From Christensenellales bacterium (GTDB taxonomy: Bacteria; Bacillota; Clostridia; Christensenellales; CAG-138), in contig JBGULC010000044.1 of the NCBI GenBank assembly GCA_045114775.1, positions 68,264-132,263 on the forward strand: a DNA stretch of 64,000 bases. The letters run 5' to 3'. The position numbers were made by a program, and so were the translations under genes. The notes under the pieces were generated by a model, which made no database searches, was not told where the DNA came from, and was given only the letters and a program-made list of their open reading frames with translations. Shown in pieces: positions 19,305-59,034 of the stretch (position 1 is the first letter of the stretch; each line of letters opens with the position of its first letter).

Positions 19305-19796
19305 TTACTCTGTCGGCACGCCCAGCCGCCGCTTCATGGTCTTTTCGACCGCGTTCAGGATGTTCTCGTAGCCCGTGCAGCGGCAAAGATGCCCGGAAAG
19401 GAGCTTTCTGAGCTCGTCGCGCGTGTAGAGTTTTTTGGTTTCGAGAATCTCAACGGCGGTCATAATGAAGCCCGGCGTGCAGAAGCCGCACTGGATCGCG
19501 CTCTCCTCCATAAACGCCTGCTGGATGTCGGAGATCTCGCCGCCCGGCCCGGTCAGGCTTTCGAGCGTGCGGATGTTCTTTCCGTCCGCCCACGCCGCGA
19601 GATAGATGCAGGAATTGAACGCCTCGCCGTCGATCAGCACGTTGCACGCGCCGCATTCGCCGACCTCGCAGCCCTTCTTGACGGAAGTCAGAGAAAAATC
19701 GTTGCGCAGAAGGTCGGTGAGCGACGCGCGCACGTCGATCATCCGCTCGACCTCCTTGCCGTTCAGCGTAAACCGGATCAGCTTATACTGTGCCAT
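19305..19796 (-). CDS. Xanthine dehydrogenase family, [2Fe-2S]-binding small subunit
   Basis: 163 aa. Plant-type cluster CEVGECGAC and second cluster QCGFCTPG...CRCTGY. Confidence 0.9.
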   Translation of the reverse strand: MAQYKLIRFTLNGKEVERMIDVRASLTDLLRNDFSLTSVKKGCEVGECGACNVLIDGEAFNSCIYLAAWADGKNIRTLESLTGPGGEISDIQQAFMEESAIQCGFCTPGFIMTAVEILETKKLYTRDELRKLLSGHLCRCTGYENILNAVEKTMKRRLGVPTE

Positions 19797-20683
19797 CAGA
19801 GCGCACCTCCCGCCAGAAGAATGGATTCATAGAGACAGCGCTTCGCCATCTCGACCGCAATGTGGCTTCTAAACGCCTTGCTTGCGCGCCACGAATCGCG
19901 CGGATTGATGTCCTCCAATACCGCAAGGCCGAACCGGTCGATGAGTTCTTTTGAAATCGGCTGTCCGTTTGCGACGGCCTCCGCGTGCGGCGCGCGCATC
20001 GGCACCGGTCCCGCCACGCCGTAAGCGATGCGGGCGCGCTCGATCGTCTTCTTGTCGGCGGAAAGCCGCACGTTTACCGAGCAGCCGAGCGTCGCAATGT
20101 CCATCGCGTTTCGCATGGCGTACTTGATGTAATGTCCGAACGTGTTCTCGTAGCTCGCCTTCGGGATCAGGATCGCGGTCTGGATCTCGCCGTCCTCCAC
20201 GCGGATATCGACCTGCCCCGCGCGGATGTAGAAGTCCTTGATCGGCAGTCTGCGAACGCCGTTTTTGCCGGTCAGTTCGATGATCGCCTCCCACGCGTGC
20301 AGGGTCGATGCGGAGTCCGCGCTCGTCACGCCGTTGCAGGTGTTCCCGCCGATCGTGCCGATGTTCCTTATCTGTGGCCCGCCGACCTGATCGACCGCTT
20401 CGCCGAGCACGTTAATGTACTTCTGGATGATCGGATCGCGCGTGATGTGCGAAAAGCTGGTCAGGCTTCCGATGCGGATATTCTCGTTTTCGTCGATCGT
20501 GATGCCGCGGAGCTCGTCCAGTCCGTAGATGCTGATCAGCTCCTTGCCCGCGCGCTTGCCTTCGCGCATCTGCACGAGCACGTCGCTCCCGCCCGCGATG
20601 ATCTGCGCCTCGGGATGCTCCAAACGAAGCTGCACGGCGTTTTCGACGCTCGTCGCTTCATACAACGCCTTCAAATCGTACAT
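19796..20683 (-). CDS. Xanthine dehydrogenase family, FAD-binding subunit
   Basis: 295 aa. PCMH-type FAD-binding domain (IIAGGSDVLVQM, GTIGGN) and a CO-dehydrogenase flavoprotein C-domain. Overlaps the small-subunit gene by 1 nt. Confidence 0.9.
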   Translation of the reverse strand: MYDLKALYEATSVENAVQLRLEHPEAQIIAGGSDVLVQMREGKRAGKELISIYGLDELRGITIDENENIRIGSLTSFSHITRDPIIQKYINVLGEAVDQVGGPQIRNIGTIGGNTCNGVTSADSASTLHAWEAIIELTGKNGVRRLPIKDFYIRAGQVDIRVEDGEIQTAILIPKASYENTFGHYIKYAMRNAMDIATLGCSVNVRLSADKKTIERARIAYGVAGPVPMRAPHAEAVANGQPISKELIDRFGLAVLEDINPRDSWRASKAFRSHIAVEMAKRCLYESILLAGGAL

Positions 20684-20686
20684 CGC

Positions 20687-22996
20687 TCAGCCCTCCTGCC
20701 ATTCGTCCCGGATCAGTCCCGCTTCGGTAAATGCCGCGAACAGATTGTGCGGATTCATCGGAAGCTTATGTAACGCCACGCCGGTCGCGTTGTAGATCGC
20801 GTTGCGGATGGCGGGCGCGCCGGAGCATGCCGGCGGCTCTCCCAATGCCTTCGTCCCAAACACGCTCGTGGGCTCCGGGTTCTCGATAAACGCCGCCGAT
20901 AGATCCGGGTGGTCCATCACGGTCGAAAGCTTGTAGTCCAAAAGGTTGTTGTTCAGCGGCTTTCCGGTCTTTTGGTCGAACAGAAGCTGTTCGGAAAGTC
21001 CGTAGCCGATCGCCATCGACATGCCGCCGTGCACCTGCGCTTCGGCGAGCGCCGGATTGATGAGGTTTCCGCAGTCGTGGACGTTCACGATGTTCTTCAC
21101 CGTGACCTTGCACAGCGGGATATCGACCTCGACCTCCGCGAACGTGCAGCCGAACGAATACGCGTTGTTCCGGATCGTGAACGTGCTTTCCGCCGTGATG
21201 TGCTCGGAATCCTGCGGGTTGTACTGTGCGGTCATGGCAAGCTCGGATAGTGAGATCAGCACCTTGCCGTCGGATTTTCGCACCACGTTTCCGTCGACGA
21301 TATCCATGTTTTCGACCGCCTGCCGCGTCAGCTTGTTCGCGTAAGCGAAGATCTTCTTTTTGAGCAGCTCCGCGGTCTGCCGGATCGAGAAACCGGCCAC
21401 GTACGTCTGTCGCGACGCGTACGCGCCGAGGCCCGTCGGCGTCGTGTCGGTGTCCTGACAGGAGACGACGTGCACGTCCTTGTAGCTTTTCAGCCCGATC
21501 GCCTCCGCCGCCATCTGCGCGAACGCCGTGTCCGCGCCCTGCCCGATCTCGGTCTCGCCGCCCTGCATCGTGACCGTTCCGTCGAGGTTCAAAAGCATCC
21601 GGTTCGACGAAGTCTCGAGCGCGATCGGCCACACCGCCGTGTTGTACCAGAACGACGCGCAGCCGATGCCGCGGCGGATCGGACCGGTGTCCTTTGCAAA
21701 TTCCTTGATCTTCTCGTCGTAGCCGATCAGTTCCTTGCCCTTTGCAAGGCATTCGCGGTGCGAATCGTAATAGTTGCAGTTTTTGCTGAAGCCGTCGAAA
21801 TATCCTTGCGGCATGATGTATTTGTTCCGGTATTCGACCGGATCCATATGCACCGCGTGGGCGCATTCCTCGATATTCGAATCGTTTGCGAATGACGCCT
21901 GCGGCATGCCGTAGCCGCGCATCGCGCCCGCCGCCGGGATGTTCGTATAGACCGTATACGCGTCGCATTCCATGTTGTCGCACGGATAGAGCTGCGGGAA
22001 CGAGCCCATCGCCTTTGCGACGATGCTGTGTCCGTGACTTGCGTACGCGCCCTGATTCGAGAAGAGATCGACCTTTCTTGCCGCCATGCTGCCGTCCGGT
22101 CGGATCCAGCTTGTGATATGGAACCGGATCGCGTGGCGCACACGGTTAGAAACAAACGTCTCCTCGCGGGAGCAATCCACGCGAACGGGTCTGCCGCCGA
22201 CCTGCGTACAGCACCACGCGCAGAGCGGCTCATAGAGCGCGTCCTGCTTGTTTCCGAAGCCGCCGCCGATATACGGCTTGATGATCTGAACGTCCGCCCA
22301 GGGCCTGCCGATCGCCTGTCCGACCACGCGGCGGACGATGTGCGGGATCTGCGTGGAGGATACGACCGTGATCCGCCCGTTTTCCTCGTAGGCGAAGCAG
22401 CCGTGGTTTTCGATGTGACAATGCTGCACCGTCGGCGTGTCGTACCAGCCCTCGACCTTGATGAGCCCCGGCTCTTGAATCGCCGCCTCGTAATCGCCTT
22501 TGCGGATCGAGGTATGCTTCAGGATGTTGTTGGGATATCCCTCGTGGAGCTGCGGCGCGCCGTCCTCCATCGCCTTCTGCGCATCCAGCACGAACGGAAG
22601 CGGCTCATATTCGACCTTCAGCGCGCGGACGCCCTGCATGGCGGAGGCCTCGTCCTCGGCGATCACGACCGCCACATCGTCGCCCCAGTAGCGCACATGC
22701 GTATTCAGAAGCCTGCGGTCCGCAACGTCCCGATGATCCGGGTCCATCGACCACGGATGTCCCGCCGTCGGGAAGTCGATCTCAGGCGCGTCGAAGCAGG
22801 TCAGTACCTTCACGACGCCTTTGATCCTTTCGGCTTCGAAGGTGTCGACCGATTTCACGAACCCGTGCGCGATCTCGCTGTGCTTGATGCGCACATACAG
22901 CGCGCCCGCGGGCATGCGGTCTTCATAGTATTTGGTCCGTCCGGTCGCCTTGTCGAAGGCGTCCACACGGATCTCGCTTTTGCCGACGATGCTCAT
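20687..22996 (-). CDS. Xanthine dehydrogenase family, molybdopterin-binding large subunit
   Basis: True start is MSIVGKSE at 22996 behind AGAGAGGAAA. 769 aa. GGGFGNK motif. Subunit order and sizes as in XdhA-XdhB-XdhC. Confidence 0.9.
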   Translation of the reverse strand: MSIVGKSEIRVDAFDKATGRTKYYEDRMPAGALYVRIKHSEIAHGFVKSVDTFEAERIKGVVKVLTCFDAPEIDFPTAGHPWSMDPDHRDVADRRLLNTHVRYWGDDVAVVIAEDEASAMQGVRALKVEYEPLPFVLDAQKAMEDGAPQLHEGYPNNILKHTSIRKGDYEAAIQEPGLIKVEGWYDTPTVQHCHIENHGCFAYEENGRITVVSSTQIPHIVRRVVGQAIGRPWADVQIIKPYIGGGFGNKQDALYEPLCAWCCTQVGGRPVRVDCSREETFVSNRVRHAIRFHITSWIRPDGSMAARKVDLFSNQGAYASHGHSIVAKAMGSFPQLYPCDNMECDAYTVYTNIPAAGAMRGYGMPQASFANDSNIEECAHAVHMDPVEYRNKYIMPQGYFDGFSKNCNYYDSHRECLAKGKELIGYDEKIKEFAKDTGPIRRGIGCASFWYNTAVWPIALETSSNRMLLNLDGTVTMQGGETEIGQGADTAFAQMAAEAIGLKSYKDVHVVSCQDTDTTPTGLGAYASRQTYVAGFSIRQTAELLKKKIFAYANKLTRQAVENMDIVDGNVVRKSDGKVLISLSELAMTAQYNPQDSEHITAESTFTIRNNAYSFGCTFAEVEVDIPLCKVTVKNIVNVHDCGNLINPALAEAQVHGGMSMAIGYGLSEQLLFDQKTGKPLNNNLLDYKLSTVMDHPDLSAAFIENPEPTSVFGTKALGEPPACSGAPAIRNAIYNATGVALHKLPMNPHNLFAAFTEAGLIRDEWQEG

Positions 22997-23282
22997 AGCG
23001 TTTCCTCTCTTGAATGTATACTTATACTTATACCAAGTATAACACGCTTCTTCGCGTTCGGAAAGAGGGAAAATATACATTTTCGCTATTCTTTCAAAGG
23101 AATACCGCTTTCGCGCGTGTATAACGGCTTTTGTTGCGGCAAGGCGGACGGGCAATGCCCGTCCCTACGGGCTAAAACACGACATTCCTTGCCTTCTCCC
23201 CGGGGAGAACGTGCCGTCAGGCGGATGAGTGGGTCAGAATCAGCGATTCTCCGCAGGGAGAATCCTCCCGAACATGCTCGAA

Positions 23283-23419: not shown

Positions 23420-24202
23420 TTATGCTTTTTTCTTCTTGATCTTGTCCGCGATCGCGAACGGCGTTGTGACAAGGCTCATATACGCGCCGAGGATGACCGC
23501 ACCGGGCAGCAGATACAGGACCGGCACGGGGATCCAGCTCCAGAAGAGCTTCAGGATCGAGATGTTCTCGTGCTCCATCGTGAAGAAGTAGTTCGCGCGG
23601 TCGTACAGACCGGTCTTGATCAGCAGCAGGTTGATGCCCGTGATCACAAGCAGCATGATCACAAGCGTCAGGATCGTAAACGGCAGATCCTTGAACTTCG
23701 GACGGTAGAAGCCGAAGGTGACCAGCGCAAGCGCTTCGATGATGATCATGAAGTGTGTGCCGTAAAAGCCGATCATACGCGGGAGCCAGATCGGGCAGTC
23801 ATAGAAGCCGACGGCCGGGAACATCAGCGCCATCAGCGCGCCGAGCGGCGCCATGAAGAAGCTGAAGCTCATCAGGGGACGGTTTTTCAGCGCAACCGCG
23901 ATCGGGATGATCATCATGTTGATGTTGCAAAGCTGCAGCGGCAGCTCGGCCCACCAGGAAAATCCGCCGCGCGTTTCGATGACGAGCTTATCGTACTCCG
24001 TGTCGATCGACAGGAAATATTTATAGACAAAGAAGCCGATGAACGTTATGACGCAGGCCGTGATCAGAACGATCTTTTTCGTCTTTTCGCTGCGCTTTCT
24101 GAGGATCAGGCTTGCAACGACGAGCAGCGCGATAAAGAACGCAAAGCACGCGAAGAACAGCGGGTTGAACGTGTTCATGATCCAGAAAGAGCTTTTTTCC
24201 AT
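23420..24202 (-). CDS. YwaF/TIGR02206-family integral membrane protein
   Basis: 260 aa, about 7 TM segments, PLQLCNI motif characteristic of this family. Confidence 0.65.
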   Translation of the reverse strand: MEKSSFWIMNTFNPLFFACFAFFIALLVVASLILRKRSEKTKKIVLITACVITFIGFFVYKYFLSIDTEYDKLVIETRGGFSWWAELPLQLCNINMMIIPIAVALKNRPLMSFSFFMAPLGALMALMFPAVGFYDCPIWLPRMIGFYGTHFMIIIEALALVTFGFYRPKFKDLPFTILTLVIMLLVITGINLLLIKTGLYDRANYFFTMEHENISILKLFWSWIPVPVLYLLPGAVILGAYMSLVTTPFAIADKIKKKKA

Positions 24203-24422: not shown

Positions 24423-25286
24423 TCAGATCATTTTGTAGAGTTCGTAACAGTTATGTCCCCTGGGAACGTCCTTGAGCTCGCCTCTGAGCAAATAGCCGTT
24501 CTTCTTGAAGAACGCAACATTCCAGTCGCCCGCATTCGTCATGACCATTGAAGCGCCGTTTCCCTTTGCGAATATCTCTGCTTCCTTCAAAAGATACGTG
24601 CCCAGACCGTGAAACCGGAGCGGTTCTTCCACAAACAGCGCTTCAACAAAGCCGGTCTCACCTTTGTCCACGTCCGCGATCACGCCAGCCGCAAATCTGC
24701 CGTCTTTGTCCGCATATTTCTTATAAAACCCGACGTTTTCACATTCCTGTTCATAGGCTTCGCTGTATGCATCAAGGCCGTTCAGTATCACTTTCGCATC
24801 GTCATCATTGCCGAAAGAAACCTTGAAGCGTGAACCGCTGTTGTCAGTCGGCACATATTCCGGCGTGTCCTTCTCAAGGTATTTGACCAGTGAATAGCTG
24901 ATATAGCCGTTCGGCTTCTTAAGCGTGGTAAAGACCGTGTAGCCGTGTTTTTCATAGAACGGTCTTGCCATATAACTGGCGGTGCCGAGCGTCACGACCC
25001 GACAACCCTTCTCTCTTGCGATACGCTCAACCTCGTGAAGGATCATAGAACCAATTCCGTGATGGCGATAGCGTTCATCCACCCAAAGGTCGTCAAGCAG
25101 GACCCTCGACCAGTGGTATTCGTAAGCTGTGGCAACGCATCCGCCAATGATCTCGCCGGTTTCGTTCTCGATTTTGAGCACGAATTCTTCTTCGTCCGCA
25201 TCCACTTCTCGCGGCACAATCTCATTTATCTTTTTGCCAATATATTCGGCTTCTTCCTTTGTCAAGTCCTCGATCCTGTATTCCAT
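24423..25286 (-). CDS. Tandem-GNAT N-acetyltransferase
   Basis: Two GNAT folds (RHHGIGSMIL..ARPFYEKHGY and RFHGLGTYLL..FFKKNGY). ATG at 25286 behind GGAGGTAA. Confidence 0.8.
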   Translation of the reverse strand: MEYRIEDLTKEEAEYIGKKINEIVPREVDADEEEFVLKIENETGEIIGGCVATAYEYHWSRVLLDDLWVDERYRHHGIGSMILHEVERIAREKGCRVVTLGTASYMARPFYEKHGYTVFTTLKKPNGYISYSLVKYLEKDTPEYVPTDNSGSRFKVSFGNDDDAKVILNGLDAYSEAYEQECENVGFYKKYADKDGRFAAGVIADVDKGETGFVEALFVEEPLRFHGLGTYLLKEAEIFAKGNGASMVMTNAGDWNVAFFKKNGYLLRGELKDVPRGHNCYELYKMI

Positions 25287-25395
25287 TTGCTTACCTCCGC
25301 AAATCTCGATTTGTTGCGGCAATTATACCATAGTCAACCTAATAAAACAACAAGAAAACCTCTCTTGCCCCGGTAGACAAAAGAGGTTTCTTTGA

Positions 25396-25469
25396 TGGCT
25401 GCCGAACTAGGATTCGAACCTAGACAATACGAGTCAGAGTCGTAGGTGCTACCATTACACAATTCGGCA
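25396..25469 (-). tRNA. tRNA-Gln (anticodon CTG)
   Basis: Hand-folded 74 nt. Acceptor UGCCGAA/UUCGGCA, anticodon loop CUCUGAC, encoded CCA. Confidence 0.85.
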
Positions 25470-25665
25470 TTATCCCGAGAAAATCCCGCCGTGCCGTCCG
25501 CTTTGGGGTGATAAGACCCGCCTCTCAGGCAGGTGGGTACACTGCAGAGCCCGCAATCTTCCCGTCAAAGCGGGCTTGATTTTAGGTCGACCGACGCGTG
25601 CTTTCCCGTAATCACTCTGTGGGTTTATCACATAAAACGTAACGCACACCGCAGGATTTCCTGTA
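25470..25665 (-). ncRNA. Structured 196-nt RNA candidate between tRNA-Val and tRNA-Gln (6S-like rod, or an RNase III-type processing spacer)
   Basis: The 5' and 3' ends pair extensively: plus-strand 25643-25662 with 25474-25495, and 25621-25631 with 25508-25519. There is also an internal hairpin AGCCCGC..GCGGGCT. It abuts both tRNAs. Confidence 0.3.
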
Positions 25666-25742
25666 TGGTGGGGTTAGTTGGGCTCGAACCAATGACCTCC
25701 ACGATGTCAACGTGGCGCTCTAACCAACTGAGCTATAACCCC
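25666..25742 (-). tRNA. tRNA-Val (anticodon GAC)
   Basis: Hand-folded 77 nt. Acceptor GGGGUUA/UAACCCC, anticodon loop UUGACAU, encoded CCA. Confidence 0.9.
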
Positions 25743-25874: not shown

Positions 25875-25903
25875 TTGCATTTTCAGATTCTCTATATTAT
25901 AAT
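25875..25903 (+). promoter_or_regulatory. Sigma-A-type promoter of the oxoamine synthase operon
   Basis: TTGCAT-17 nt-TATAAT in an AT-rich spacer. AAAGGAGG RBS at 25924. Confidence 0.6.
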
Positions 25904-25935
25904 ATTTGTCGGTATTTTTTTGAAAGGAGGATCCC

Positions 25936-27111
25936 ATGGATCTGTTCTCCAAATGTCACAATCCGGTATTGGACGAGATCAGAGCGAAGAACATTTATCC
26001 GTATTTCCACGAGCTCGAATCCATGCAGGCGCCCGAAGTCATCATGGAAGGCAAGCGCCGCATCATGCTCGGCTCAAACGGATATCTGGGCCTTGCCACG
26101 CATCCGCGCGTGATTTCCGCGGGAGTCGAAGCGCTCAAGAAGTTCGGCTCCGGCTGCGCAGGATCGCGGTTTCTGAACGGCACGCTCGTGCTGCACACAC
26201 AGCTCGAACGCGAGCTTGCCGCATTCATCGGCAAGGACGCCTGTATGACCTTCTCGACCGGATTCCAAAGTAACCTCGGAATCATCAGCGCAGTCGCGGG
26301 ACGCGGCGACGTCATCCTCTGCGATCGCGAAAACCACGCGAGCATCTACGACGGCTGCAAGCTCAGCTACGCCGAAATGGTGCGCTACCGCCACAACGAC
26401 ATGGCGGATCTCGAAAAGAAGCTTGCCGCTCTTCCCGACAAGGCGGGCCGTCTCATCGTCACCGACGGCGTGTTCTCGATGGGCGGCGACATCGCGAATC
26501 TTCCCGAGATCGTTCGTCTTGCGAAGAAGTACGGCGCGCGCGTCATGGTCGACGACGCGCACGGTCTCGGCGTCCTCGGCGAGGGCGGCCGCGGCACCGC
26601 AAGCTATTTCGGCCTCACCGACGAGGTCGACATCATCATGGGCACGTTCTCGAAATCGCTCGCGGGCATCGGCGGCTTCATGGCGGCAAGCGACGAAGTC
26701 GTGGATTATGTGCGGCACACCTCGCGTCCGTTCATCTTCTGCGCGTCCATCCCCCCCGCCTCCTGCGCGACCGTCAACGAAGCGCTGCGTATTCTCATTG
26801 AGCAGCCGGAGCTGCCGAAGCGCCTCATGGAGCTTTCCATGTACATGCGCAGCGGTCTTAAGCGCGAGGGTATCGCGATCCGCGAGAGCACGACGCCGAT
26901 CATCCCGCTTTACACGCACGACATCGAGACCACGCTCCGGGTCGAAAAAGCGCTGTTCGATCGCGGCGTCTACGTGAACCCGGTCCTGCCGCCCGCCGTG
27001 CATCCGAGCGAGTGCATGCTCAGGACGAGCTACATGGCGACGCACACCGAAGCGCTCCTCGACGAAGCGCTCGGCATCATCAAAGAGGTGTTCACCGAAT
27101 ATGGCATCTGA
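25936..27111 (+). CDS. PLP-dependent alpha-oxoamine synthase, serine palmitoyltransferase-like
   Basis: 391 aa. GSGCAGSRFLNGT and PLP-lysine motif GTFSKSLAGIGGF resemble SPT/CqsA more than KBL (GTLGKALGG) or BioF. Confidence 0.8.
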   Translation: MDLFSKCHNPVLDEIRAKNIYPYFHELESMQAPEVIMEGKRRIMLGSNGYLGLATHPRVISAGVEALKKFGSGCAGSRFLNGTLVLHTQLERELAAFIGKDACMTFSTGFQSNLGIISAVAGRGDVILCDRENHASIYDGCKLSYAEMVRYRHNDMADLEKKLAALPDKAGRLIVTDGVFSMGGDIANLPEIVRLAKKYGARVMVDDAHGLGVLGEGGRGTASYFGLTDEVDIIMGTFSKSLAGIGGFMAASDEVVDYVRHTSRPFIFCASIPPASCATVNEALRILIEQPELPKRLMELSMYMRSGLKREGIAIRESTTPIIPLYTHDIETTLRVEKALFDRGVYVNPVLPPAVHPSECMLRTSYMATHTEALLDEALGIIKEVFTEYGI

Positions 27112-27892
27112 ACAGCGGATCACCGTCATCACAGGCGCATCCAAAGGCATCGGGAAAGCGGCAGCCGCCGCTTTTTCGCGTGCGGGCGATCGTGTCTATA
27201 ACCTTTCGAGAAGCGGTGAAACGACCGAAACGGCCGTTCACATCCCCTGCGACGTCACGGACGAAACGCAGTGCAAAGAGGCAATAGAGACCGTTTCAGA
27301 GCGCGAGGGACGCATCGACGTGCTGATTCTGAACGCGGGCTTCGGCATCTCCGGTCCGGTCGAAACGACGGAGCTCGAACAGGCGAAAAAGCAGTTCGAC
27401 GTCTGCCTGTTCGGCGCGATCCGCGTGCTGAAAGCCGCGCTGCCTGCTTTACGCGAAAGCAAGGGCATGATCCTCTTTACCTCCTCCGTCGCTGCGGTCA
27501 CGCCGATCCCGTATCAGGCGTTCTATTCCGCCGCGAAGGCCGCGATCAACAGCGTCGTGATGGCGCTTCGAAACGAATTGAAGGGCACAGGCATCCGCGT
27601 CGCGGCGGTGCTGCCCGGCGACGTCAAGACCGATTTCACCGCAAAGCGCGAGAAGAATCCGGTCAATGAAGAGCTTTATCCGAACGAAGTGAAATCCGTC
27701 GCAAAAATGGAGCACGACGAACAGCACGGTATGAGTCCGGACCGGATCGCAAAGCGCTTCCTGAAGCTCTCCCGGCAAAAGAATCCGAAGCCGTTCTGCT
27801 CGGTCGGCGTCGCCTATTCGGCGGTGCTGGTGCTTATGAAGATCCTGCCTGCGCGGTTTGCAAACTGGGTCCTCGGAAAGATGTACGCATAA
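27101..27892 (+). CDS. Short-chain dehydrogenase/reductase (SDR)
   Basis: TGASKGIG cofactor motif and catalytic YSAAK. Overlaps the oxoamine synthase gene by 11 nt. Confidence 0.85.
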   Translation: MASEQRITVITGASKGIGKAAAAAFSRAGDRVYNLSRSGETTETAVHIPCDVTDETQCKEAIETVSEREGRIDVLILNAGFGISGPVETTELEQAKKQFDVCLFGAIRVLKAALPALRESKGMILFTSSVAAVTPIPYQAFYSAAKAAINSVVMALRNELKGTGIRVAAVLPGDVKTDFTAKREKNPVNEELYPNEVKSVAKMEHDEQHGMSPDRIAKRFLKLSRQKNPKPFCSVGVAYSAVLVLMKILPARFANWVLGKMYA

Positions 27893-28722
27893 TGTTTGAT
27901 CCTACTCCCGCCATGGCCGGATGGTTCGGCTATCCGCTCGAATTAAACGACCGCCTGCGTCTCATCCGGGACGCGGGCTTTCGCGGCGTGCTCCTCTGGT
28001 GGGCGGTCGAGTCGGCGTACGAGCCGCCCGTGCCCGAAAAGGTCGAGACCGCGGCAAAGTACGGGCTTTCCGTCGTCAACGCGCATCTGCAGTTTGCAAA
28101 GATGAACACGCTGTGGCAGCCCGGGTACGAGGGCGAGCACTACGCGGCGGAGCTTGCGGGGTTGATTGCCGAAGCGGGCGTGTACGGCGTACCGACGCTT
28201 GTTGTGCATCTTACGCGATCTGTTACTCCCCCGCCGTTTTCGGAGCTCGGGTTCTCCCGTTTTCTCCGTCTCTGCGAAGTCGCGGAGCGCGCGAACGTGG
28301 ATCTTGCGTTTGAAAATTTACGCGCGCCGGAATACCTCTATGAGTTTCTGCAGCGCGTCGATTCCCCGCGCGTCGGCGTCTGCTTCGACGCCGGACACAA
28401 CCATGTCTTCTGCCCCGACCGGCGGATCTGCGTCGATTTTGCGGATCGCATCAAGGCTGTGCATCTGCACGACAACGACGGCACGCGCGACGCGCACAAC
28501 CTCCCCGGCGACGGTACGATCGACTGGTCCGAGGTTCGGCGCGAGCTTCTCGCCTCCGCCTATGCGGGTCCGTGGTCGCTTGAGATCGAGCACGCGCAGA
28601 CCTCGGAGTTCGGCAAAGCGCTGCTTTCCCCCGCGGACGATCCCTACTACGGCATGGAGCCCGAGGAATACCTTGCAAAGGCGTTCCAGGCACATCAGAA
28701 GCTCATCCGCGGCACGTTGTAA
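27892..28722 (+). CDS. Xylose-isomerase-like TIM-barrel protein (sugar phosphate isomerase/epimerase family)
   Basis: AFENL, CFDAGH and HLHDNDG metal-ligand blocks. The start overlaps the SDR stop codon (TAATG). Confidence 0.75.
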   Translation: MFDPTPAMAGWFGYPLELNDRLRLIRDAGFRGVLLWWAVESAYEPPVPEKVETAAKYGLSVVNAHLQFAKMNTLWQPGYEGEHYAAELAGLIAEAGVYGVPTLVVHLTRSVTPPPFSELGFSRFLRLCEVAERANVDLAFENLRAPEYLYEFLQRVDSPRVGVCFDAGHNHVFCPDRRICVDFADRIKAVHLHDNDGTRDAHNLPGDGTIDWSEVRRELLASAYAGPWSLEIEHAQTSEFGKALLSPADDPYYGMEPEEYLAKAFQAHQKLIRGTL

Positions 28723-28740
28723 TCAATAACGCATATACGA

Positions 28741-28769
28741 AAAGGTCCTCTTCCGAGGACCTTTTTTCA
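28741..28769 (+). terminator. Terminator of the oxoamine synthase operon
   Basis: AAAGGTCCTC-ttcc-GAGGACCTTT followed by TTTT. Confidence 0.8.
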
Positions 28770-28771
28770 AT

Positions 28772-29352
28772 CGTCAGGAGAACCGTCTGCCTGTCACTGT
28801 TCCCCTGCCGCACATAACTGTTATGTTCACTCTGTCACTTTACGAAAAATCCGCTCTCCGTCTGATGATGTACGAGAAAACGCAAACCCATTCCGGATAT
28901 AAAAGCGTTCAGCCATTCTGACAGGAACAAGCTCTATATACGTTGCTCCCAATGATTGAAGATGTTTTTCGACCATTCGATATACAGCAGAACCGACACC
29001 GGAGTTTCTATACGCTGCACATACATAGAAGTTGTTGATATAGCCTTTGTACCATTCCTCGTGGAACGAATAGGTAATCAATCCAACGCAGACTCCATTT
29101 TCTATAATCCGCATCATAAAATACGGATTATGCTCCTGAAGCGTCTGCTCAATCATATGTGCGTTCAGTTCATCATTGTGAAGATCGTCAATGTTCTCTT
29201 GATATTCTTCTTCGTCGCACACTTCTCTCAGATACGAACTGAACAAATCATAGAAATCATCCCATTCATCTTTTTTCTGTAAATCAAATCGTATCAGTTC
29301 GATCATAGCCTATAACAACTCTTTCCAAGACAAGGGAACGGTTCTCCTGACG
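28772..29352. repeat. Low-GC cassette bracketed by perfect 15-bp inverted repeats
   Basis: CGTCAGGAGAACCGT (28772-28786) and its reverse complement ACGGTTCTCCTGACG (29338-29352) enclose only the AT-rich GNAT gene. Confidence 0.6.
28827..29306 (-). CDS. GNAT family N-acetyltransferase
   Basis: 159 aa. Acetyl-CoA motif YRNSGVGSAVYRMV..AERFYIRNGF. Clearly lower G+C than its neighbours. Confidence 0.8.
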   Translation of the reverse strand: MIELIRFDLQKKDEWDDFYDLFSSYLREVCDEEEYQENIDDLHNDELNAHMIEQTLQEHNPYFMMRIIENGVCVGLITYSFHEEWYKGYINNFYVCAAYRNSGVGSAVYRMVEKHLQSLGATYIELVPVRMAERFYIRNGFAFSRTSSDGERIFRKVTE

Positions 29353-37072: not shown

Positions 37073-40000
37073 TTACCTGTTCATTCTCCAAATGCTCTGC
37101 CGCTCCGCAGGCCGTTTCGCCGGTACGGGCTGCGCTTCTATGCGCCGCGGTCCTCCGCGAAGGAACGCCGGTTCCGGGAGCGAGTCGGGGGGCGGTTCCG
37201 GAGGATTGCCATCCTGCGTGAGGTCGGCAGAATCTGGGGTCGGGTCGGGGGTCTCGTCCTCTTTCGGGGATTCGGCCGGGTCGGTGGTCTCGTCCTCTTT
37301 CGGGGATTCGACCGGGTCGGTGGTCTCGCTTTCTGTCAGAGTTTCGATCTGTTCGGAGATCTCTCCCTCCGTCGGCTGATCGCCGGCACCTCCCTCGTCA
37401 GAGGGAGGTTGAATCGAAGGCACGGTCGAAGTATCTGTCTCGACTACTGCTCCTTCTCCTACCTCTGAGCTCCCCTTGTCAGGGGAGCTGTCAGCTTCTG
37501 CTGACTGAGGGGTAGTTTCGACTGTGACGGTCGTAAACGAAGCCTCCGGGTTCTCCATCTCTGTCGGGGATTCTTCCGGTTCGGGAATCTCTCCCTCCGT
37601 CGGCTGATCGCAGACATCTCCCTCGTCTAAGGGTAGTTGCGTGCTTGCGTCGGATTCCGGGGTCTCTCCCTCCGTCGGCTGGTCGTCGATGACACATCCT
37701 TCGACCGGAGGCTGATCGGTAGCATCCCCATCGGATGATTCGTCGCAGGACGTCGTTTCCGTATTGTCGAGCGTTTCCTGCTCTGCATCGGAATCTTCGG
37801 GCTGCTTCTCCAAGGCCTCTGCAGCCGCGCGTTCCGCCGTCGAATCAAGACGAATGCCGCGCAGCAGGAACGTCGGGATCGGGAACGAGATCGGCACCTC
37901 CTCGATCGGAAACGCTTTGTGTTCCTCTGCCGTCGGCGATTCTGCAGGAGGTTCTTCTTCCGTCAGCGCTTCGACCGGGTCGGGGGGTTCTTCTTCCGTC
38001 AGAGCTTCGATCGGTTCGTGGGACTCTCCTTCCGTCAGGGCTTCGGTCTGTTCTGAGGTCTCTCCCTCCGTCGGCTGTTCGCCGACACCTCCCTCGTCAG
38101 AGGGAGGTTGCGTGCTTGCGTCGGATTCCGGGATTTTTCCCTCCGTCGGCTGTTCGTCGACACCTCCTTCATCAAAGGGAGGTTGAATCGAAGGATCAGT
38201 CGAAGTATCTGTCTCGCGTACTGCTACTTCTCCAACGTCCGAGCGCCCCTTGTCAGGGGAATTGTCAGCTTCTGCTGACTGAGGGGTAGTTCCGTCGGTG
38301 ACGGTCGTAAACGAAGCCTCCGGGTTCTCCCTCTCCGTCGGGGATTCGTCCGGTTCCGGGATCTCTCCCTCCGTCGGCTGATCGCAGATAATACTGTCTT
38401 CAGCAACGGGCTGAACCGCGTCGCTTTCGTCGGCAGCGGGCTGAATTGCGGCGCTTTCTTTGGCAGCAGGCTGAGCCGCGGCGCTCTCGTCAACTATGGT
38501 TTGAACCGCTGTGCTTTCGTCGGCAGCGGGCTGAATTGCGGCGACGCTGTCGGCGAGCGTTTCCGGGACGATTTCCGATTCCGGCATTATTTCTTTGAAC
38601 GAAACTTCCGGTATGGGATCCCTGTCGTGCTTCGCTTCGCCGGCGATTGCGGAGATCGCCGCTGCAGAAGCCGGTATGACAGTCGAGGTAGGCTCGTCAA
38701 AGCCGTTGACGTAATGCAAAAGGGAAACGCCGTCCCGAAGCGTATGCGAAGCCTCGGATCCGTGCGACGAATCGGATCCTTTGAAGGAAGACGGTTCGAC
38801 CGTTTTGCGCAAACCGGATTCCGAAACCGTCCGCACAACAAAGGTTCTTTCCGCGGCAGGCGCCGCGGGTTTTGCCGGTTCATGTTCCGTCTTCGGACGC
38901 GGCATGACCGTTCGCACGACAGCGGGCCGCTCCGAAGATCTCGGTTCGGCGAAACGGGCGCTTTCCGGTTTTGTGGCAACCGGCTCGACAGGCCGTCTGA
39001 ACACGACGGTCTCGTCGCTCGTACGCGCGGCGGGTCTTTCAAATGCGGGTGCTTCCGCCGTCGGTCTGCGGAACTCGCCGGTATTGCCCTTCGGTCTCGG
39101 CGTGACCGGTTCGGCGGGCCGTCTGAACGCTGCGTCTTCCGTCGGACGCGCGGCGGGTCTTTCAAATGCGGCTGCTTCCGCTGTCGGTCTGCGGAATTCG
39201 CCGGTGTTGCCCTTCGGTCTCGGCGTAACAGGTTCGGCGGGACGCCGGAATGTTGCGGTCTCCTCCGCGGATCGCGCCGCGGGTCTTCCCGATTCGGATG
39301 CTTCCGCAGTCGGTCTGCGGAATTCGCCGGTGTTGCCCTTCGGTCTCGGCGTAACAGGTTCAGTACGCCGCGCCGCGGGTCTTGCAAATTCGGATGCTTC
39401 CGCTGTCGGTCTGCGGAATTCGCCGGTATCGCTCTTCGGTCTCGGCGTGACCGGTTCGGCGGGACGTACGTATGCAGCCGTTCCGGGCTTTGCCGTCAGC
39501 ATGATGCGTGTGCCGTCTGCGGTGCGCATTGAATCGGGCTTGGCAGCCGACAGGACGCGTGTGCCGTCGCCGTCGATGCGTACTGATGTATCCTGTGCGG
39601 CAGAACGTGCTGCGGGTCGCGCGCCTTCGCGCCGCATATCCTCGGCAAGGCCTCTTGCGTATAGCTCGCGCCTTGCCTTCGCCTCCTCGTCGGTCAGTTC
39701 GCCGTAGCTTCTGAGCTTGATCGGCTGTCGGTAGCCGAAGCGCTCGGTCGGCGTGTCGTTGAAAAGCGGATCGTCCGGGCGGCGTTTGGTGGCGCGAAGC
39801 GCCTTCTCCATGTCCTCCTCGAACTCGCCCGGCAGCTTGCTTCTGATCTTTCTTTCGAACGCGTAAAGCACGATACACACGATCGCGCAGAACGCCGCGA
39901 CGCCGAGCGTGATCACGGTGATGAGCTTCAGGATCCCGCGATACTTCGCGTCGAGATCCTGCATATAGGGATTGGTGGTAACGACGTAGACCGGATCGGT

Positions 40001-41443
40001 CTTGCGGTCGACCTGATCGCGGAACGGCGTCGTATCGACGGTGACCGTCTGTGAGCTGTGCGTCTGTCCCGCCGGATCCTCTGCGTCGACGCGGAAGCAG
40101 AGCTTGCCGACGCCGTCGATCTGATAGGTCTGCGTAAAATAGGTATCGCCGCGCAAAAGCTCCGGATAGGACACGACCTCATGGAACAGGGTCGTTTCGG
40201 TCAGTACGGCTTTTTTGAGCCTGATGTCGCCGTAATAGCCGATCCGGAACTGGAACGCAACACAGAGCTTGCCGTTGCCGTCGAAGTAAGGCTTCTGCGG
40301 CTCGACGCGCAGCTCGATGCGCACGCCCTCCTGCTCGATATACGGCGTCACGCGGAAGGATTCGGGATCGGTAACGGTAACGGGCTTTAGAAGCGCATCC
40401 GTTCCGGTCGCATGGAAACGCACCGTGCGGATGACGTCCGCGGCGACGCCCGGCTTCACAACATAACGGATCGATTTCGTCTGATTCGCGGGCAGATCGA
40501 AGGGATTGTCGACGAGCGTATTGATCTCATCGTAGACACGGATGTCGGTAACCGTGCGGTTGCCGTTGTTTTTAACGGTGATGATGAACTCGGTCCCCGC
40601 TTCCGTTGCCGGGAACGCCTGTGTGGAGATCGATAGATCCACTGTGACGGAACCGACGCCGATCGCCGTCTCCGCGACCGTCGTGATGTTTCTGCGCCGC
40701 GCAACGTATTCGACCGTCGGGCGGAACGTCATATCCGTCACGCCCATCGTGTAGGTCACGGGCACGACCATCGTCCGTCCCGCGGTAAGCTCGTCGCTTG
40801 TGAGCGGGATCGACTGAAGCCCCTGCTCCGGATCGTAGAGCCGAAGCCCGGTCATATCGAACAGGGTGTCGTTTTTCAGCGTGTATTCGACGGTAAACGA
40901 ATCGCCGACCCGCACGAGCTCGTTCTCGCAGAAGGCGGAAACGGTCAACTCGGGCACGATAAACCGCTCGATCACGATGTTTGCGGAGGTTTCCCTGAAA
41001 TGCGTGATCGTAACGGCTTCGCCGGTCTCGTCGTCGATGAGCGCTTCGCCCGTTTCCTCGTCAAAAGCCGGTTCATGCTCCTCCCAGGAAAGCGTATAGG
41101 TCACGGGAACGTCAAGCTGATCCTCGGCGATGGGGACGTCGGAAAGCGTGAACTCCCGCTTGCCGCCCGCAAGGACCTCGATCTTCTCGTCGAGCGCGCG
41201 TTCGACGTCTTCATAGCCGCCGGAAAGCTTTGCGTTATACAGCGTATAGTCGGATTCGGAATCGTTGAAGATCGTGAAAAGCATGTCCGGCACGGTCCCT
41301 TCGCCCTCAAGTTCGGGCATCGGATCGACCGTGATCGAAAGCGTGATCGGATGCTCGCCCTCGGCAAAGCCGCCCGCGGGGACGATCGATGCCGGGAGCA
41401 GAAGCGCCAATATGCAGATCAGGATGACAATGCGTCGTTTCAT
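37073..41443 (-). CDS. Giant single-pass membrane protein: signal peptide, four Ig-like/CARDB-like modules, TM segment, and an approximately 930-aa disordered repeat-rich tail
   Basis: 1456 aa. Signal peptide MKRRIVILICILALLL, TM segment ILKLITVITLGVAAFCAIVCIVLYAF near residue 500, tail rich in P/E/T/A/R with tandem and segmental repeats. Confidence 0.75.
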   Translation of the reverse strand: MKRRIVILICILALLLPASIVPAGGFAEGEHPITLSITVDPMPELEGEGTVPDMLFTIFNDSESDYTLYNAKLSGGYEDVERALDEKIEVLAGGKREFTLSDVPIAEDQLDVPVTYTLSWEEHEPAFDEETGEALIDDETGEAVTITHFRETSANIVIERFIVPELTVSAFCENELVRVGDSFTVEYTLKNDTLFDMTGLRLYDPEQGLQSIPLTSDELTAGRTMVVPVTYTMGVTDMTFRPTVEYVARRRNITTVAETAIGVGSVTVDLSISTQAFPATEAGTEFIITVKNNGNRTVTDIRVYDEINTLVDNPFDLPANQTKSIRYVVKPGVAADVIRTVRFHATGTDALLKPVTVTDPESFRVTPYIEQEGVRIELRVEPQKPYFDGNGKLCVAFQFRIGYYGDIRLKKAVLTETTLFHEVVSYPELLRGDTYFTQTYQIDGVGKLCFRVDAEDPAGQTHSSQTVTVDTTPFRDQVDRKTDPVYVVTTNPYMQDLDAKYRGILKLITVITLGVAAFCAIVCIVLYAFERKIRSKLPGEFEEDMEKALRATKRRPDDPLFNDTPTERFGYRQPIKLRSYGELTDEEAKARRELYARGLAEDMRREGARPAARSAAQDTSVRIDGDGTRVLSAAKPDSMRTADGTRIMLTAKPGTAAYVRPAEPVTPRPKSDTGEFRRPTAEASEFARPAARRTEPVTPRPKGNTGEFRRPTAEASESGRPAARSAEETATFRRPAEPVTPRPKGNTGEFRRPTAEAAAFERPAARPTEDAAFRRPAEPVTPRPKGNTGEFRRPTAEAPAFERPAARTSDETVVFRRPVEPVATKPESARFAEPRSSERPAVVRTVMPRPKTEHEPAKPAAPAAERTFVVRTVSESGLRKTVEPSSFKGSDSSHGSEASHTLRDGVSLLHYVNGFDEPTSTVIPASAAAISAIAGEAKHDRDPIPEVSFKEIMPESEIVPETLADSVAAIQPAADESTAVQTIVDESAAAQPAAKESAAIQPAADESDAVQPVAEDSIICDQPTEGEIPEPDESPTERENPEASFTTVTDGTTPQSAEADNSPDKGRSDVGEVAVRETDTSTDPSIQPPFDEGGVDEQPTEGKIPESDASTQPPSDEGGVGEQPTEGETSEQTEALTEGESHEPIEALTEEEPPDPVEALTEEEPPAESPTAEEHKAFPIEEVPISFPIPTFLLRGIRLDSTAERAAAEALEKQPEDSDAEQETLDNTETTSCDESSDGDATDQPPVEGCVIDDQPTEGETPESDASTQLPLDEGDVCDQPTEGEIPEPEESPTEMENPEASFTTVTVETTPQSAEADSSPDKGSSEVGEGAVVETDTSTVPSIQPPSDEGGAGDQPTEGEISEQIETLTESETTDPVESPKEDETTDPAESPKEDETPDPTPDSADLTQDGNPPEPPPDSLPEPAFLRGGPRRIEAQPVPAKRPAERQSIWRMNR
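38990..39470. repeat. In-frame tandem repeats within the giant ORF (four units, periods 123/126/96 bp)
   Basis: The core GCTTCCGCNGTCGGTCTGCGGAAYTCGCCGGT recurs at 39051, 39174, 39300 and 39396. It encodes EPVTPRPKxxTGEFRRPTAEA. Confidence 0.9.
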
Positions 41444-52045: not shown

Positions 52046-52080
52046 GATAAATCATGATTTCGATTCTGTCGGAGAGTGCA

Positions 52081-54009
52081 ATGACGGATTATCATATCGG
52101 TTCCTATCGCAGCATCGACGCCTTTGTGCGCGACAAGCTCGGCGCCTTCAAAGAGGCCGGGTTTACGTTCCGTTCGCTCTTCGATCTGATGTTCCGCGAA
52201 GGGGACAACGTGCTTTGGGAGCGCAGCGAGGGCTACCGCATCCGCAAAACGACCTACGGCGAAGCGAAGACGCACATTCTGTCCCGCGCAGCCGCGCTGA
52301 AGGACGCGCTGAAGGGACTTCCCCACAATGCGGTCGTCGGGCTGTATCTCGACAACAGCCTCGACTGGATCGAGCTTTTCTGGGCGATCCTCGCCGCAGG
52401 GTTCCGTCCGCTTCTGATGAATCTGCGTCTGCCCGCGCCGCTTCTTTTGAGCGCCATGCGCACGGCGGACTGCCGGGCTGTCGTCGGCGACCGCGGCGAA
52501 TTCTCCTGCCCCGTGCTGCGGCCCGATGCGCTTTCCGTTGACGGCGCGCCGATCGAAGCGCAGCCGTTCGGCTCCGAGCTGCTCGTCATGTCCTCCGGCA
52601 CGACCGAGAACGTCAAGGTCTCGGCGTATTCCGCGGAGGAATTCTACTTCCAGATCTGCGACAGCTACGGCATCATCCGGGAGCAGCCGATGATCAAGCA
52701 GCACTACGAGGGCAATCTGAAGCTTCTGACGTTCCTGCCGTTTTACCACGTGTTCGGGCTGATCGCGATGTATATCTGGTTCGCGTTCTTCTCGCGCACG
52801 TTCGTGCAGCTCAACGATCTTGCGCCGTCGACGATCGTGAACACGGTCCGCCGCCACAAGGTCACGCACATCTTCGCCGTTCCGCTCTTCTGGGAGCGCG
52901 TATACGAACAGGCGAAAAAAGGGATCGCCGACCGGGGCGAAAAGACCGCGGCGAAGTTCGAACGCGCGCTTGCGCTTCAGCAAAAGCTGCCCGCGGCGCT
53001 CGGACGGGCGTTTGCGAAGGCGGCGTTTCGCGAGGTGCGCGAGAATCTGTTCGGCGAATCCGTGCTGTTCATGATCTCGGGCGGCAGCTTTCTGGATCCC
53101 GACGCGCACGCGTTTTTCAACGGGATCGGCTACCCGCTCGCGAACGGCTACGGCATGACCGAGATCGGCATCACCTCGGTCGAGCTTTCGTTCCAAAAGA
53201 AATACCTGCGATCCGGCAGCGTCGGAAAGCCGATGCACAGCGTCGAATACCGGATCAACGCGGACGGCGAGCTTGAGGTCAAGGGACTCGTCACCGCAAA
53301 ATACATCCTGACCGCGGACGGCATGACCGGGCGGCACGGCTGGTTCAACACGCACGATCTCGCTGCCTGCATCGACGGGCATTACCGGATCCTCGGCCGG
53401 ACGGACGATCTGATCGTCGGACCGGACGGCGAAAACCTGAACCCGAACGCGATCGAACCGCTCCTGAAAACCGACGGCGCCGAGGTCTGCCTGATCCCCT
53501 GCAGCGACGGCGGAAAGCCCGCGACCGTGCTGCTGTGCGGCGTGAACCGCATGACGACGAAGGAGACCGCGGAGCGCATCCTCGCTTCGCTCAGGGAACG
53601 GATCGAAGGTCTGCGTCTCTCCCCCGCGATCTCAAAGATCGCGCTCGTCGAGGGTCCGCTGATGAAGGCCGACGAATTCAAGCTGAACCGCATCCGGCTC
53701 CGGCGCGACTACGCCTCCGGCGCGCTGAAGCCGCTCGATCTTTCCCGGGAGCACGGGGACGAAGCGCTTGACGCGCTGACGGCGCGGGTCCGCGCGATCG
53801 TGGCGCAGGCGACGAACCGCGACGAAACGGAGATCGCGCCCGACGCCGATTTCTTCCTCGATCTCGGAGGCACGAGCCTCGACTGGTTCGCCATGCTGAC
53901 GCGTCTGCGCGACGAGTTCGGCGCTGCGTTCCCGCTCGAGGAAACGAACCTCAAAACCGTGCGGAGCATCGTCGGATACATCCGCGCGGAGAAAGGCGGT
54001 TCGCTTTGA
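52081..54009 (+). CDS. Fatty-acyl-AMP ligase / adenylation enzyme fused to a C-terminal carrier-protein (PP-binding) domain
   Basis: AMP-binding motifs SSGTTENVK and GWFNTHDL..GRTDD. C-terminal DLGGTSLDWF phosphopantetheine-site motif. The start is either 52081 (GGAGAG RBS) or 52054 (near-leaderless). Confidence 0.8.
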   Translation: MTDYHIGSYRSIDAFVRDKLGAFKEAGFTFRSLFDLMFREGDNVLWERSEGYRIRKTTYGEAKTHILSRAAALKDALKGLPHNAVVGLYLDNSLDWIELFWAILAAGFRPLLMNLRLPAPLLLSAMRTADCRAVVGDRGEFSCPVLRPDALSVDGAPIEAQPFGSELLVMSSGTTENVKVSAYSAEEFYFQICDSYGIIREQPMIKQHYEGNLKLLTFLPFYHVFGLIAMYIWFAFFSRTFVQLNDLAPSTIVNTVRRHKVTHIFAVPLFWERVYEQAKKGIADRGEKTAAKFERALALQQKLPAALGRAFAKAAFREVRENLFGESVLFMISGGSFLDPDAHAFFNGIGYPLANGYGMTEIGITSVELSFQKKYLRSGSVGKPMHSVEYRINADGELEVKGLVTAKYILTADGMTGRHGWFNTHDLAACIDGHYRILGRTDDLIVGPDGENLNPNAIEPLLKTDGAEVCLIPCSDGGKPATVLLCGVNRMTTKETAERILASLRERIEGLRLSPAISKIALVEGPLMKADEFKLNRIRLRRDYASGALKPLDLSREHGDEALDALTARVRAIVAQATNRDETEIAPDADFFLDLGGTSLDWFAMLTRLRDEFGAAFPLEETNLKTVRSIVGYIRAEKGGSL

Positions 54010-55278: not shown

Positions 55279-55282
55279 CACT

Positions 55283-56797: not shown

Positions 56798-57035
56798 GAT
56801 CATCGACAAGCTCAAGGAGATCCTTCTTGCGGCGGACGACCGCAACCGCGACAAGGTGCTCGCCTGCACCGAGGGCTCGAAGCTCGTCGCCGACCTCGGC
56901 TTCTCGTCGGTCTCCATGCTCTATATGGTCATCGCGATCGAGGAGGAGATGGGCATCCGCTTCGACAACGTCGGCGCGTCCGATTTTGAAACACTCGGCG
57001 ACGTCGTGACCTATATCGAGGCGAAGCTCAAATGA
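56784..57035 (+). CDS. Stand-alone acyl carrier protein
   Basis: 83 aa. DLGFSSVSMLYMV serine-site helix. Overlaps both neighbouring genes. Confidence 0.75.
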   Translation: MSRTEIIDKLKEILLAADDRNRDKVLACTEGSKLVADLGFSSVSMLYMVIAIEEEMGIRFDNVGASDFETLGDVVTYIEAKLK

Positions 57036-58072: not shown

Positions 58073-58081
58073 GAGGACGGT

Positions 58082-59020: not shown

Positions 59021-59034
59021 GAGGACAACTGAAA

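Follow-up and report, generated by a model that had tools for sequence, protein, structure and literature searches.

Does a pair of overlapping genes in an uncultured Clostridial lineage carry out the first steps of sphingoid-base synthesis? The question is raised by a 64,000-nucleotide stretch of DNA from a Christensenellales bacterium (NCBI GenBank assembly GCA_045114775.1, contig JBGULC010000044.1, positions 68,264 to 132,263 of the forward strand; hereafter the window, numbered from its first letter). Three genes follow one another closely on its plus strand. The first (25936-27111) encodes a 391-aa α-oxoamine synthase that is dependent on pyridoxal 5′-phosphate (PLP), with Lys240 as the Schiff-base lysine, and resembles serine palmitoyltransferase (SPT). 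The second (27101-27892) encodes a 263-aa ketoreductase of the classical short-chain dehydrogenase/reductase (SDR) type, which resembles KdsR, and the third (27892-28722) a 276-aa xylose isomerase-like TIM barrel. An earlier reading, made from the letters alone (the sequence-only reading), took the three genes as an operon and the first two as the opening half of sphingoid-base synthesis. We found the operon observation confirmed and the interpretation supported in part. With a probability that we put at roughly 60%, the sequence comparisons described below point to a two-enzyme module that makes a sphingoid-type long-chain base, most likely a sphinganine-like amino alcohol.

The synthase and SDR genes overlap by 11 nt, the ATG of the SDR gene being at 27101 and the TGA of the synthase gene at 27109-27111. 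The SDR gene is in turn joined to the TIM-barrel gene at a TAATG junction (27890-27894), in which the TAA (27890-27892) and the ATG (27892-27894) have an A in common. Both couplings had been noticed in the sequence-only reading, and both are borne out.

By Pfam, the synthase is an Aminotran_1_2 protein (192.9 bits) and the SDR an adh_short protein (154.4 bits). The curated equivalog cut-offs of NCBIfam were used as family tests. The best match of the synthase is NF047600, the model for SPTs of the Cytophaga-Flavobacterium-Bacteroides (CFB) type, with 527.6 bits against a cut-off of 640. The other models scored as follows: betaproteobacterial SPT, 413 bits (cut-off 500); 2-amino-3-ketobutyrate CoA ligase (KBL), 384 bits with NF005394 (cut-off 460) and 311 bits with TIGR01822 (cut-off 493); BioF (TIGR00858), 380.3 bits (cut-off 426.45); alphaproteobacterial SPT, 349.5 bits (cut-off 670); 5-aminolevulinate synthase, 259 bits (cut-off 339); and CqsA/LqsA (NF005526), 212.3 bits (cut-off 428). 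As yardsticks on NF047600, the true SPT of Sphingobacterium multivorum scores 722 bits, a distant member of the Clostridial family 504 and Escherichia coli KBL 348. The window synthase thus lies between certified SPT, for which 640 bits are required, and KBL, and is nearer to SPT. A search against the sequences of solved structures gave the same ranking, with 416 bits for S. multivorum SPT, 312 for Sphingomonas SPT, 272 for KBL/BioF, 248 for SulA, 231 for CapB and 127.5 for the CqsA structures.

The S. multivorum enzyme (PDB 3A2B, 8GUH; NF047600) is a soluble PLP enzyme of fold type I with approximately 390 residues, as is the window synthase, and the two share 49.5% identity in an alignment that is gapless across 378 residues. 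The identity is 42.5% to S. paucimobilis SPT, approximately 37% to KBLs and 32% to E. coli BioF. A neighbour-joining tree of 147 sequences with 100 bootstraps was built from 124 representatives of a 1.84-billion-protein library, 16 members of the Clostridial family and seven references. The Clostridial synthases are monophyletic in 97 of the 100 bootstraps. The smallest clade that holds both them and S. multivorum SPT leaves all KBLs outside in 98/100 bootstraps, and it is free of both KBL and Sphingomonas SPT in 73/100. In this tree, the Clostridial family stands beside the characterised enzymes as a sister clade, not within them. The phylogenetic comparison with KBL and BioF, which the sequence-only reading had proposed as a check, therefore came out on the side of SPT.

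The residues of the active site agree with this placement. The synthase carries the motifs GSRFLNGT and GTFSKSLAGIGGF, as the sequence-only reading had stated for its translation. The corresponding segments are GSRFLNGT and GTFSKSLASLGGF in S. multivorum SPT, so that the first motif is identical and the second, GTFSKSLA motif is nearly so, whereas KBL has SVRFICGT and GTLGKALGGASGGY. We took the active-site residues of S. multivorum SPT described in PMC10196870 as the reference set. Asn52, Gly80, Ser81, Phe83, Leu84, His138, Ser185, Asp210, Ala212, His213, Thr241, Ser243, Lys244, Phe272 and Ala274 are all kept. The PLP Schiff-base lysine, the His/Asp/His catalytic set, the serine-binding residues and the hydrophobic residues of the acyl site are thus all present in the window synthase, in whose numbering the counterparts include Lys240, His134, Asp206, His209, Asn48, Gly76, Ser77, Ser181, Thr237, Ser239 and Ala270. 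Met271 of S. multivorum SPT is replaced by Ile, as in Sphingomonas SPT. Every position that we found to discriminate SPT from KBL has the SPT state in 93-100% of the 16 family members. These positions are Tyr27/Phe28, Gly80-Ser81, Ala212, Ser243, Ala274, a hydrophobic residue at 338 and Ser369, where the KBL states are Glu/Ser/Asn-Glu, Ser-Val, Ser/Cys, Gly, Asn, Gln/Thr and Gln, respectively. Tyr27 forms the wall of the acyl site and Phe28 belongs to the adjoining hydrophobic core, and both are 100% conserved in the Clostridial family. Family scores, structure matches, tree and residues together show that the oxoamine synthase is SPT-like, and not a KBL or BioF. The sequence-only reading had called it SPT/CqsA-type; the SPT half of that assignment holds, whereas the CqsA half does not, as the scores given above for the CqsA model and structures are far lower.

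The coupled SDR has its best NCBIfam match, aligned over the full length, in NF049977, the model of KdsR, the 3-ketodihydrosphingosine reductase of Bacteroidota, with 189.8 bits. The characterised representative, 3-ketosphinganine reductase BT_0972 of Bacteroides thetaiotaomicron (PMC9278070), is likewise a classical SDR of approximately 265 residues. All of the SDR orthologues scanned (24/24) match KdsR, the best E-value being 2.1e-78 versus 7e-66 for the next family. The family match of the coupled SDR fits the suggestion of the sequence-only reading that a synthase plus a ketoreductase represents the first half of sphingoid-base synthesis. The window protein has the classical SDR motifs, TGASKGIG in the glycine-rich segment, NAG at residues 78-80 and Tyr-x-x-x-Lys. 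The glycine-rich motif, NAG, the Ser129/Tyr142/Lys146 triad and Arg37 after strand β2 are invariant in 24 orthologues. A search of the solved structures with the SDR returned no close structure. An arginine after strand β2 of an SDR marks a preference for NADP(H). Based on this general knowledge of SDRs, the invariant Arg37 suggests a preference for NADP(H) and hence a biosynthetic reductase.

The pairing of the two genes recurs widely. A scan of one genome per species returned at least 526 confirmed relatives of the synthase. The best 80 of these come nearly all from metagenome-assembled genomes labelled Clostridia, Clostridiales/Eubacteriales, Oscillospiraceae, Christensenellaceae or Ruminococcus, four being labelled otherwise (Kiritimatiellaeota, Sutterella and two plain 'bacterium' records), with rumen, omasum, hindgut, human gut, chicken and rabbit among the sources. 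Uncultured Clostridia account for roughly 500 or more species-level genomes with the synthase-SDR module, and some of its variants occur on more than 100 metagenome contigs each. No cultured carrier was found, since every organism name among the 240 homologues listed belongs to a metagenome-assembled genome. Of the 77 loci whose downstream sequence is long enough, 70 have the SDR gene directly after the synthase gene, including loci with a synthase identity as low as 63%; the matched synthase and SDR stretches are separated by a median of 8 nt. Because the adjacency recurs in so many related loci, it is more than chance, and the pair is a conserved unit. In B. thetaiotaomicron, we take BT_0870 to be the SPT gene; its locus number is distant from that of BT_0972, which suggests that the two genes are not adjacent, whereas those of the window overlap.

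A sister representative with 53% identity (L085) also has a synthase gene followed by an overlapping SDR gene. In that locus (L085:6001-8462), the synthase, the SDR and a 151-aa Gcn5-related N-acetyltransferase (GNAT) form a tight same-strand unit, in a genome with phosphotransferase system (PTS) and PRD genes. The GNATs of the window are unrelated to this one. Across more distant loci, a Pfam census of 121 flanking open reading frames (ORFs) contained neither bio genes nor tdh, and an N-acyltransferase did not recur. The recurring neighbours of lipid type were AMP-binding ligases (5), a lipid kinase (3) and PAP2 (3), and the rest were housekeeping genes. The ligases found directly 3′ of the SDR gene (L060, L077), nearby (L042) or upstream (L070) have long-chain fatty-acid-CoA ligases as their best match, and those after the SDR gene in L067 and L073 received the same assignment by clustering. 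Judged by family match, these FadD-like neighbours would fit a fatty acyl substrate, and they may reflect one sub-clade.

In one further lineage (L022:10075-11654, also L024 and L026), genes for a DgkB/YegS-type lipid kinase and a PAP2-like membrane protein come after the pair. With a score above the cut-off of the general YegS/Rv2252/BmrU lipid-kinase family and its closest resemblance to a diacylglycerol kinase model, the kinase is probably a housekeeping enzyme. We rejected the kinase and PAP2 protein as pathway partners, as they accompany the pair in this lineage only, and the window contains no homologue of either.

From family affinity, conserved residues, gene structure and synteny, we infer the following pathway. 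The PLP-dependent synthase would catalyse the decarboxylative Claisen condensation of an amino acid (L-serine being the most likely) with a long-chain fatty acyl thioester of either CoA or acyl carrier protein (ACP), releasing CO2 and forming a 3-keto-2-amino lipid of the 3-ketodihydrosphingosine type. The coupled SDR would then reduce the 3-keto group with NADPH to yield a sphinganine-type amino alcohol. Since no N-acyltransferase is linked to the pair, the pathway may end with the free base, or unlinked genes may turn the base into a finished lipid.

Several points weigh against this pathway. The synthase is below every curated family cut-off, that of SPT included (527.6 versus 640 bits), and the SDR is below that of KdsR (189.8 versus 400). 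The margin of KdsR is small for the window SDR, because the generic SDR subfamily PRK06179 reaches 184.9 bits. The tree is a neighbour-joining tree with two experimentally characterised SPT references only. According to the Pfam census, a ceramide synthase, a head-group enzyme or a dedicated ACP is linked to the pair in none of the loci. The FadD and lipid-kinase/PAP2 neighbours each occur in one sub-lineage, and each may therefore be a single event. Finally, specificity for the amino acid and for the acyl chain is not readable from sequence.

Some of these points would equally suit the same chemistry with other substrates. With alanine, glycine, threonine or cysteate, or with a shorter or unusual acyl donor, the product would be a 1-deoxy-type base, a sulfonolipid precursor resembling capnine, or a small signal molecule of the amino-alcohol or hydroxyketone kind. 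The scores of both proteins below the equivalog cut-offs, the separate clade of the synthase family and the lack of linked downstream sphingolipid genes among the 121 flanking ORFs speak for this alternative. Moreover, S. multivorum SPT itself uses amino acids other than serine, alanine and glycine among them, with low efficiency (PMC10196870), and the small GNAT directly after the SDR in L085 suggests that a small amine is N-acetylated in that lineage. However, Asn52, Gly80 and Ser243 (serine hydroxyl via water) and the hydrophobic residues of the acyl site match those of S. multivorum SPT. A sulfonolipid precursor has a precedent in SulA/CapB and 3-ketocapnine reductase, where an oxoamine synthase is likewise followed by a ketoreductase (PMC9304779; PMC11211663), but SulA and CapB are far under SPT in score (248 and 231 versus 416 bits). 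SulA has Lys281 in place of the alanine found in Spts (PMC9304779), whereas by our own residue mapping the counterpart in the window synthase is Ala270, 30 residues after the Schiff-base lysine. CqsA is lower still, and the resemblance to an α-hydroxyketone (CAI-1-type) synthase that the sequence-only reading had raised was rejected on these scores (212.3 versus 428 bits with the family model; 127.5 bits to the CqsA structures). We consider a module with other substrates unlikely on the whole, and the most serious of the alternatives.

The layout of an oxoamine synthase gene beside a dehydrogenase gene is also that of E. coli kbl-tdh, and the KBL models still reach 311-384 bits with the window synthase, so that a catabolic pair for threonine and glycine, KBL with an SDR-type threonine dehydrogenase, has to be weighed. 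We regard it as very improbable. Both KBL cut-offs are missed (384 versus 460 and 311 versus 493 bits) and the SPT model scores approximately 140 bits higher; the identity to E. coli KBL is 37%, the signature residues of KBL are absent, and KBLs stay outside the clade in 98 of the 100 bootstraps. The partner enzyme does not match either. E. coli Tdh is a zinc-dependent medium-chain dehydrogenase, and the known SDR-type threonine dehydrogenases are longer, extended-type and NAD+-dependent, whereas the window protein is a 263-aa classical SDR with the invariant NADP-type arginine; no tdh was among the flanking genes. Still less credible is that the synthase is a BioF (8-amino-7-oxononanoate synthase) that happens to stand beside an unrelated SDR. 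JGI labels several family members 8-amino-7-oxononanoate synthase, and the BioF model reaches 380.3 bits, but this is under its cut-off of 426.45, the identity to the E. coli enzyme is 32%, none of the 121 flanking ORFs is a bio gene, and biotin synthesis makes no use of the SDR, whose gene is a conserved, overlapping partner.

The proposed sphingoid-base module can also be compared with the systems in which this chemistry is established. Unlike S. multivorum SPT, the Clostridial synthase belongs to a separate monophyletic clade and is coupled to an SDR gene (70/77 loci), and its hosts are of a Gram-positive, spore-forming lineage; SpoVT is encoded near the operon in the window. The ceramide pathway of Caulobacter crescentus consists of Spt, a dedicated ACP with its ACP synthetase, bCerS and CerR. 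It likewise starts with a condensation by an SPT-family enzyme and includes a reductase for the 3-keto group. This reductase, CerR, is not known to be a classical SDR, and in Caulobacter acylation is described as preceding reduction. The window synthase reaches only 349.5 bits with the model for alphaproteobacterial SPT, the class that includes Caulobacter (cut-off 670), and no ACP or ACP synthetase gene adjoins the window pair, the sole such pair being 28 kb off in another cluster. None of the Caulobacter-type partner genes of spt was found in the operon or as a conserved neighbour, the N-acyltransferase having been looked for by the Pfam census, without a bCerS reference or model.

Signals for transcription and translation frame the three genes. 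A putative promoter, as read from the sequence, lies at 25875-25903 on the plus strand and consists of TTGCAT (25875-25880), a 17-nt spacer and TATAAT (25898-25903). TATAAT matches the -10 consensus perfectly, and the -35 hexamer TTGCAT fits its consensus at 3/6 positions; because of this partial match, the promoter is missing from the list of the consensus scan of the plus strand. A ribosome-binding site, AAGGAGG (25924-25930), is located 5 nt 5′ of the ATG at 25936. A GC-rich hairpin that starts 18 bases 3′ of the TIM-barrel stop codon, AAAAGGTCCTC-TTCC-GAGGACCTTTT followed by a T run (28740-28768, plus strand), was recognised by eye as an intrinsic terminator and is not on the list of the simple scan. 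The limits that the sequence-only reading had given to the operon (25875-28769) match this promoter and terminator and therefore bracket one apparent transcription unit, to which we infer that all three genes belong. Rfam showed no riboswitch or RNA leader 5′ of the operon; the matches there are tRNAs and a 6S RNA on the opposite strand. These form a divergent block just 5′ of the operon (25396-25742, minus strand), in which the 6S RNA gene (25479-25660, 60.9 bits, minus strand) lies directly between the genes for tRNA-Gln and tRNA-Val.

The third gene of the operon is of a different standing. The protein belongs to PF01261 (AP_endonuc_2, xylose isomerase-like; 96.9 bits versus a gathering cut-off of 31.1). 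Its structural model has a pLDDT (predicted local distance difference test) value of 95.5, and the top matches listed, mostly ketose 3-epimerases with 13-20% identity, have TM-scores of 0.68-0.79. No specific subfamily was reached: the match to CbiR is weak (40 bits versus a cut-off of 105), and the sequences of solved structures gave three weak matches of at most 39 bits. The invariant His/Glu/Asp set of the family resembles, in our own reading, the metal ligands of endonuclease IV. The weak CbiR match hints at a metal-dependent hydrolase, and nothing ties it to the pair.

The TIM-barrel gene adjoins the pair only at synthase identities of 88% or more to the window protein, and even there the content after the SDR gene varies. 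In 11 relatives, a gene for a 109-aa small membrane protein lies between the SDR and TIM-barrel genes, with one of these loci (L001) ending before the TIM-barrel position. This ORF (L080:2501-2830, with equivalents in L001-L006, L008, L010, L014 and L061) is hydrophobic and, judged by eye, would cross the membrane about three times. It is lacking in the window, L012 and L016, and in the window the SDR stop codon consequently overlaps the TIM-barrel start codon. L007, L009, L011 and L015 lack both genes. Orthologues of the TIM barrel with 56-60% identity (L087 and L089, corresponding to P0391 and P0387) are found in a different conserved operon, with the order ParA/Mrp-like ATPase, C_GCAxxG_C_C protein, TIM barrel, Lit (PF07314) and TsaD. 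The sequence-only reading had placed the TIM barrel in the operon; the coupling stands, whereas membership in the pathway is not supported, in view of its restriction to the closest relatives and of the orthologues in the other operon. The gene is probably co-transcribed here as a lineage-specific passenger or add-on, outside the conserved module.

If the pair makes long-chain bases, it would add a large, unrecognised group of producers. Making sphingolipids in the gut is regarded as a hallmark of Bacteroidota, and sphingolipids from bacteria are known to affect the immunity and the lipid metabolism of the host; Christensenellales-type lineages are abundant in metagenomes. Sphingoid-base synthesis would then also not be tied to the outer membrane. 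A wider claim is possible at less than even odds: that uncultured Clostridia of gut and rumen, including Christensenellales-type lineages, are a second gut source of sphingoid bases or sphingolipid-like lipids, of Gram-positive lineage, by means of a minimal stand-alone operon of SPT and 3-ketodihydrosphingosine reductase (KDSR) to which no ceramide synthase is linked. They would then produce the free base, or a new lipid class completed by unlinked or lineage-specific genes; in this lineage, the latter could be those for the TIM barrel, with its endonuclease IV-like pattern of metal ligands, and for the small membrane protein of the nearest relatives.

The sequence-only reading had called sphingolipid-like synthesis unexpected in this lineage, and the literature is in keeping with that: in the library searched, we found no paper that reports the trait in Firmicutes. 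A full-text search returned no report of an SPT/KDSR module in Clostridia, Stankeviciute et al. 2022 being weighed only through the papers that cite it. Two papers describe the predicted sphingolipid producers as Gram-negatives and a smaller Gram-positive group, Actinobacteria being named in one of them, and in a 2025 preprint on gut lipid metabolism SPT was detected only in E. coli and B. thetaiotaomicron. Source databases label the Clostridial family as generic PLP aminotransferase or as BioF. The chemistry is known, and what is new is the lineage, the two-gene operon and the absence of linked downstream genes.

Other genes of the window had been suggested as partners. Two GNAT genes flank the operon (24423-25322 and 28827-29306, both on the minus strand, from ORF and Pfam matches), as the sequence-only reading had noted, but its link to a bacterial ceramide synthase was not supported. 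The upstream gene is cut off from the operon by the minus-strand genes for tRNA-Val, 6S RNA and tRNA-Gln, and the downstream gene is convergent with the operon and lies beyond the terminator. Both proteins match only Acetyltransf_1/7/10 and ArsN2/RimI-type models, which are families of small-molecule acetyltransferases, and neither is a conserved neighbour of the pair; on these family matches, their strand and position, and synteny, they were rejected as ceramide-synthase candidates. Likewise, the ACP/ligase pair that had been pointed out 28 kb away exists, by ORF and family match, as an AMP-binding protein (55283-56797, plus strand) and an ACP-like protein (56784-57035, plus strand), but it belongs to a separate eight-gene cluster of lipid type on the plus strand (52054-59969). 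The cluster encodes an AMP-binding-ACP fusion, two PlsC-type acyltransferases, the FadD-like ligase, the ACP, a fusion of LRAT, NlpC-P60 and 4′-phosphopantetheinyl transferase, an alpha/beta hydrolase and DegV, and its product may be an acylated lipid or aminolipid. No link between this cluster and the operon was found. The distant ligase was not retained as a partner, the ligases that adjoin the pair in other genomes being only 26-31% identical to it.

The region upstream of the operon contains further minus-strand features. A TMEM164-related integral membrane acyltransferase (23420-24202; PF14808, 100.5 bits) is encoded 1.7 kb upstream. It was rejected as a partner, because only four close relatives have it in the vicinity of the pair, at variable distance. 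Farther upstream is a molybdoenzyme of the xanthine dehydrogenase/aldehyde oxidase type with 2Fe-2S, FAD and molybdopterin subunits (19305-23008), which is unrelated to the operon. Between the molybdoenzyme and TMEM164-like genes, Rfam places a Gut-1 RNA (RF01706; 23284-23362; 59.5 bits versus a gathering cut-off of 50). Elsewhere in the window, a 1456-aa ORF (37073-41443, minus strand) has no Pfam match, and its codon-position GC pattern is less gene-like than those of its neighbours.

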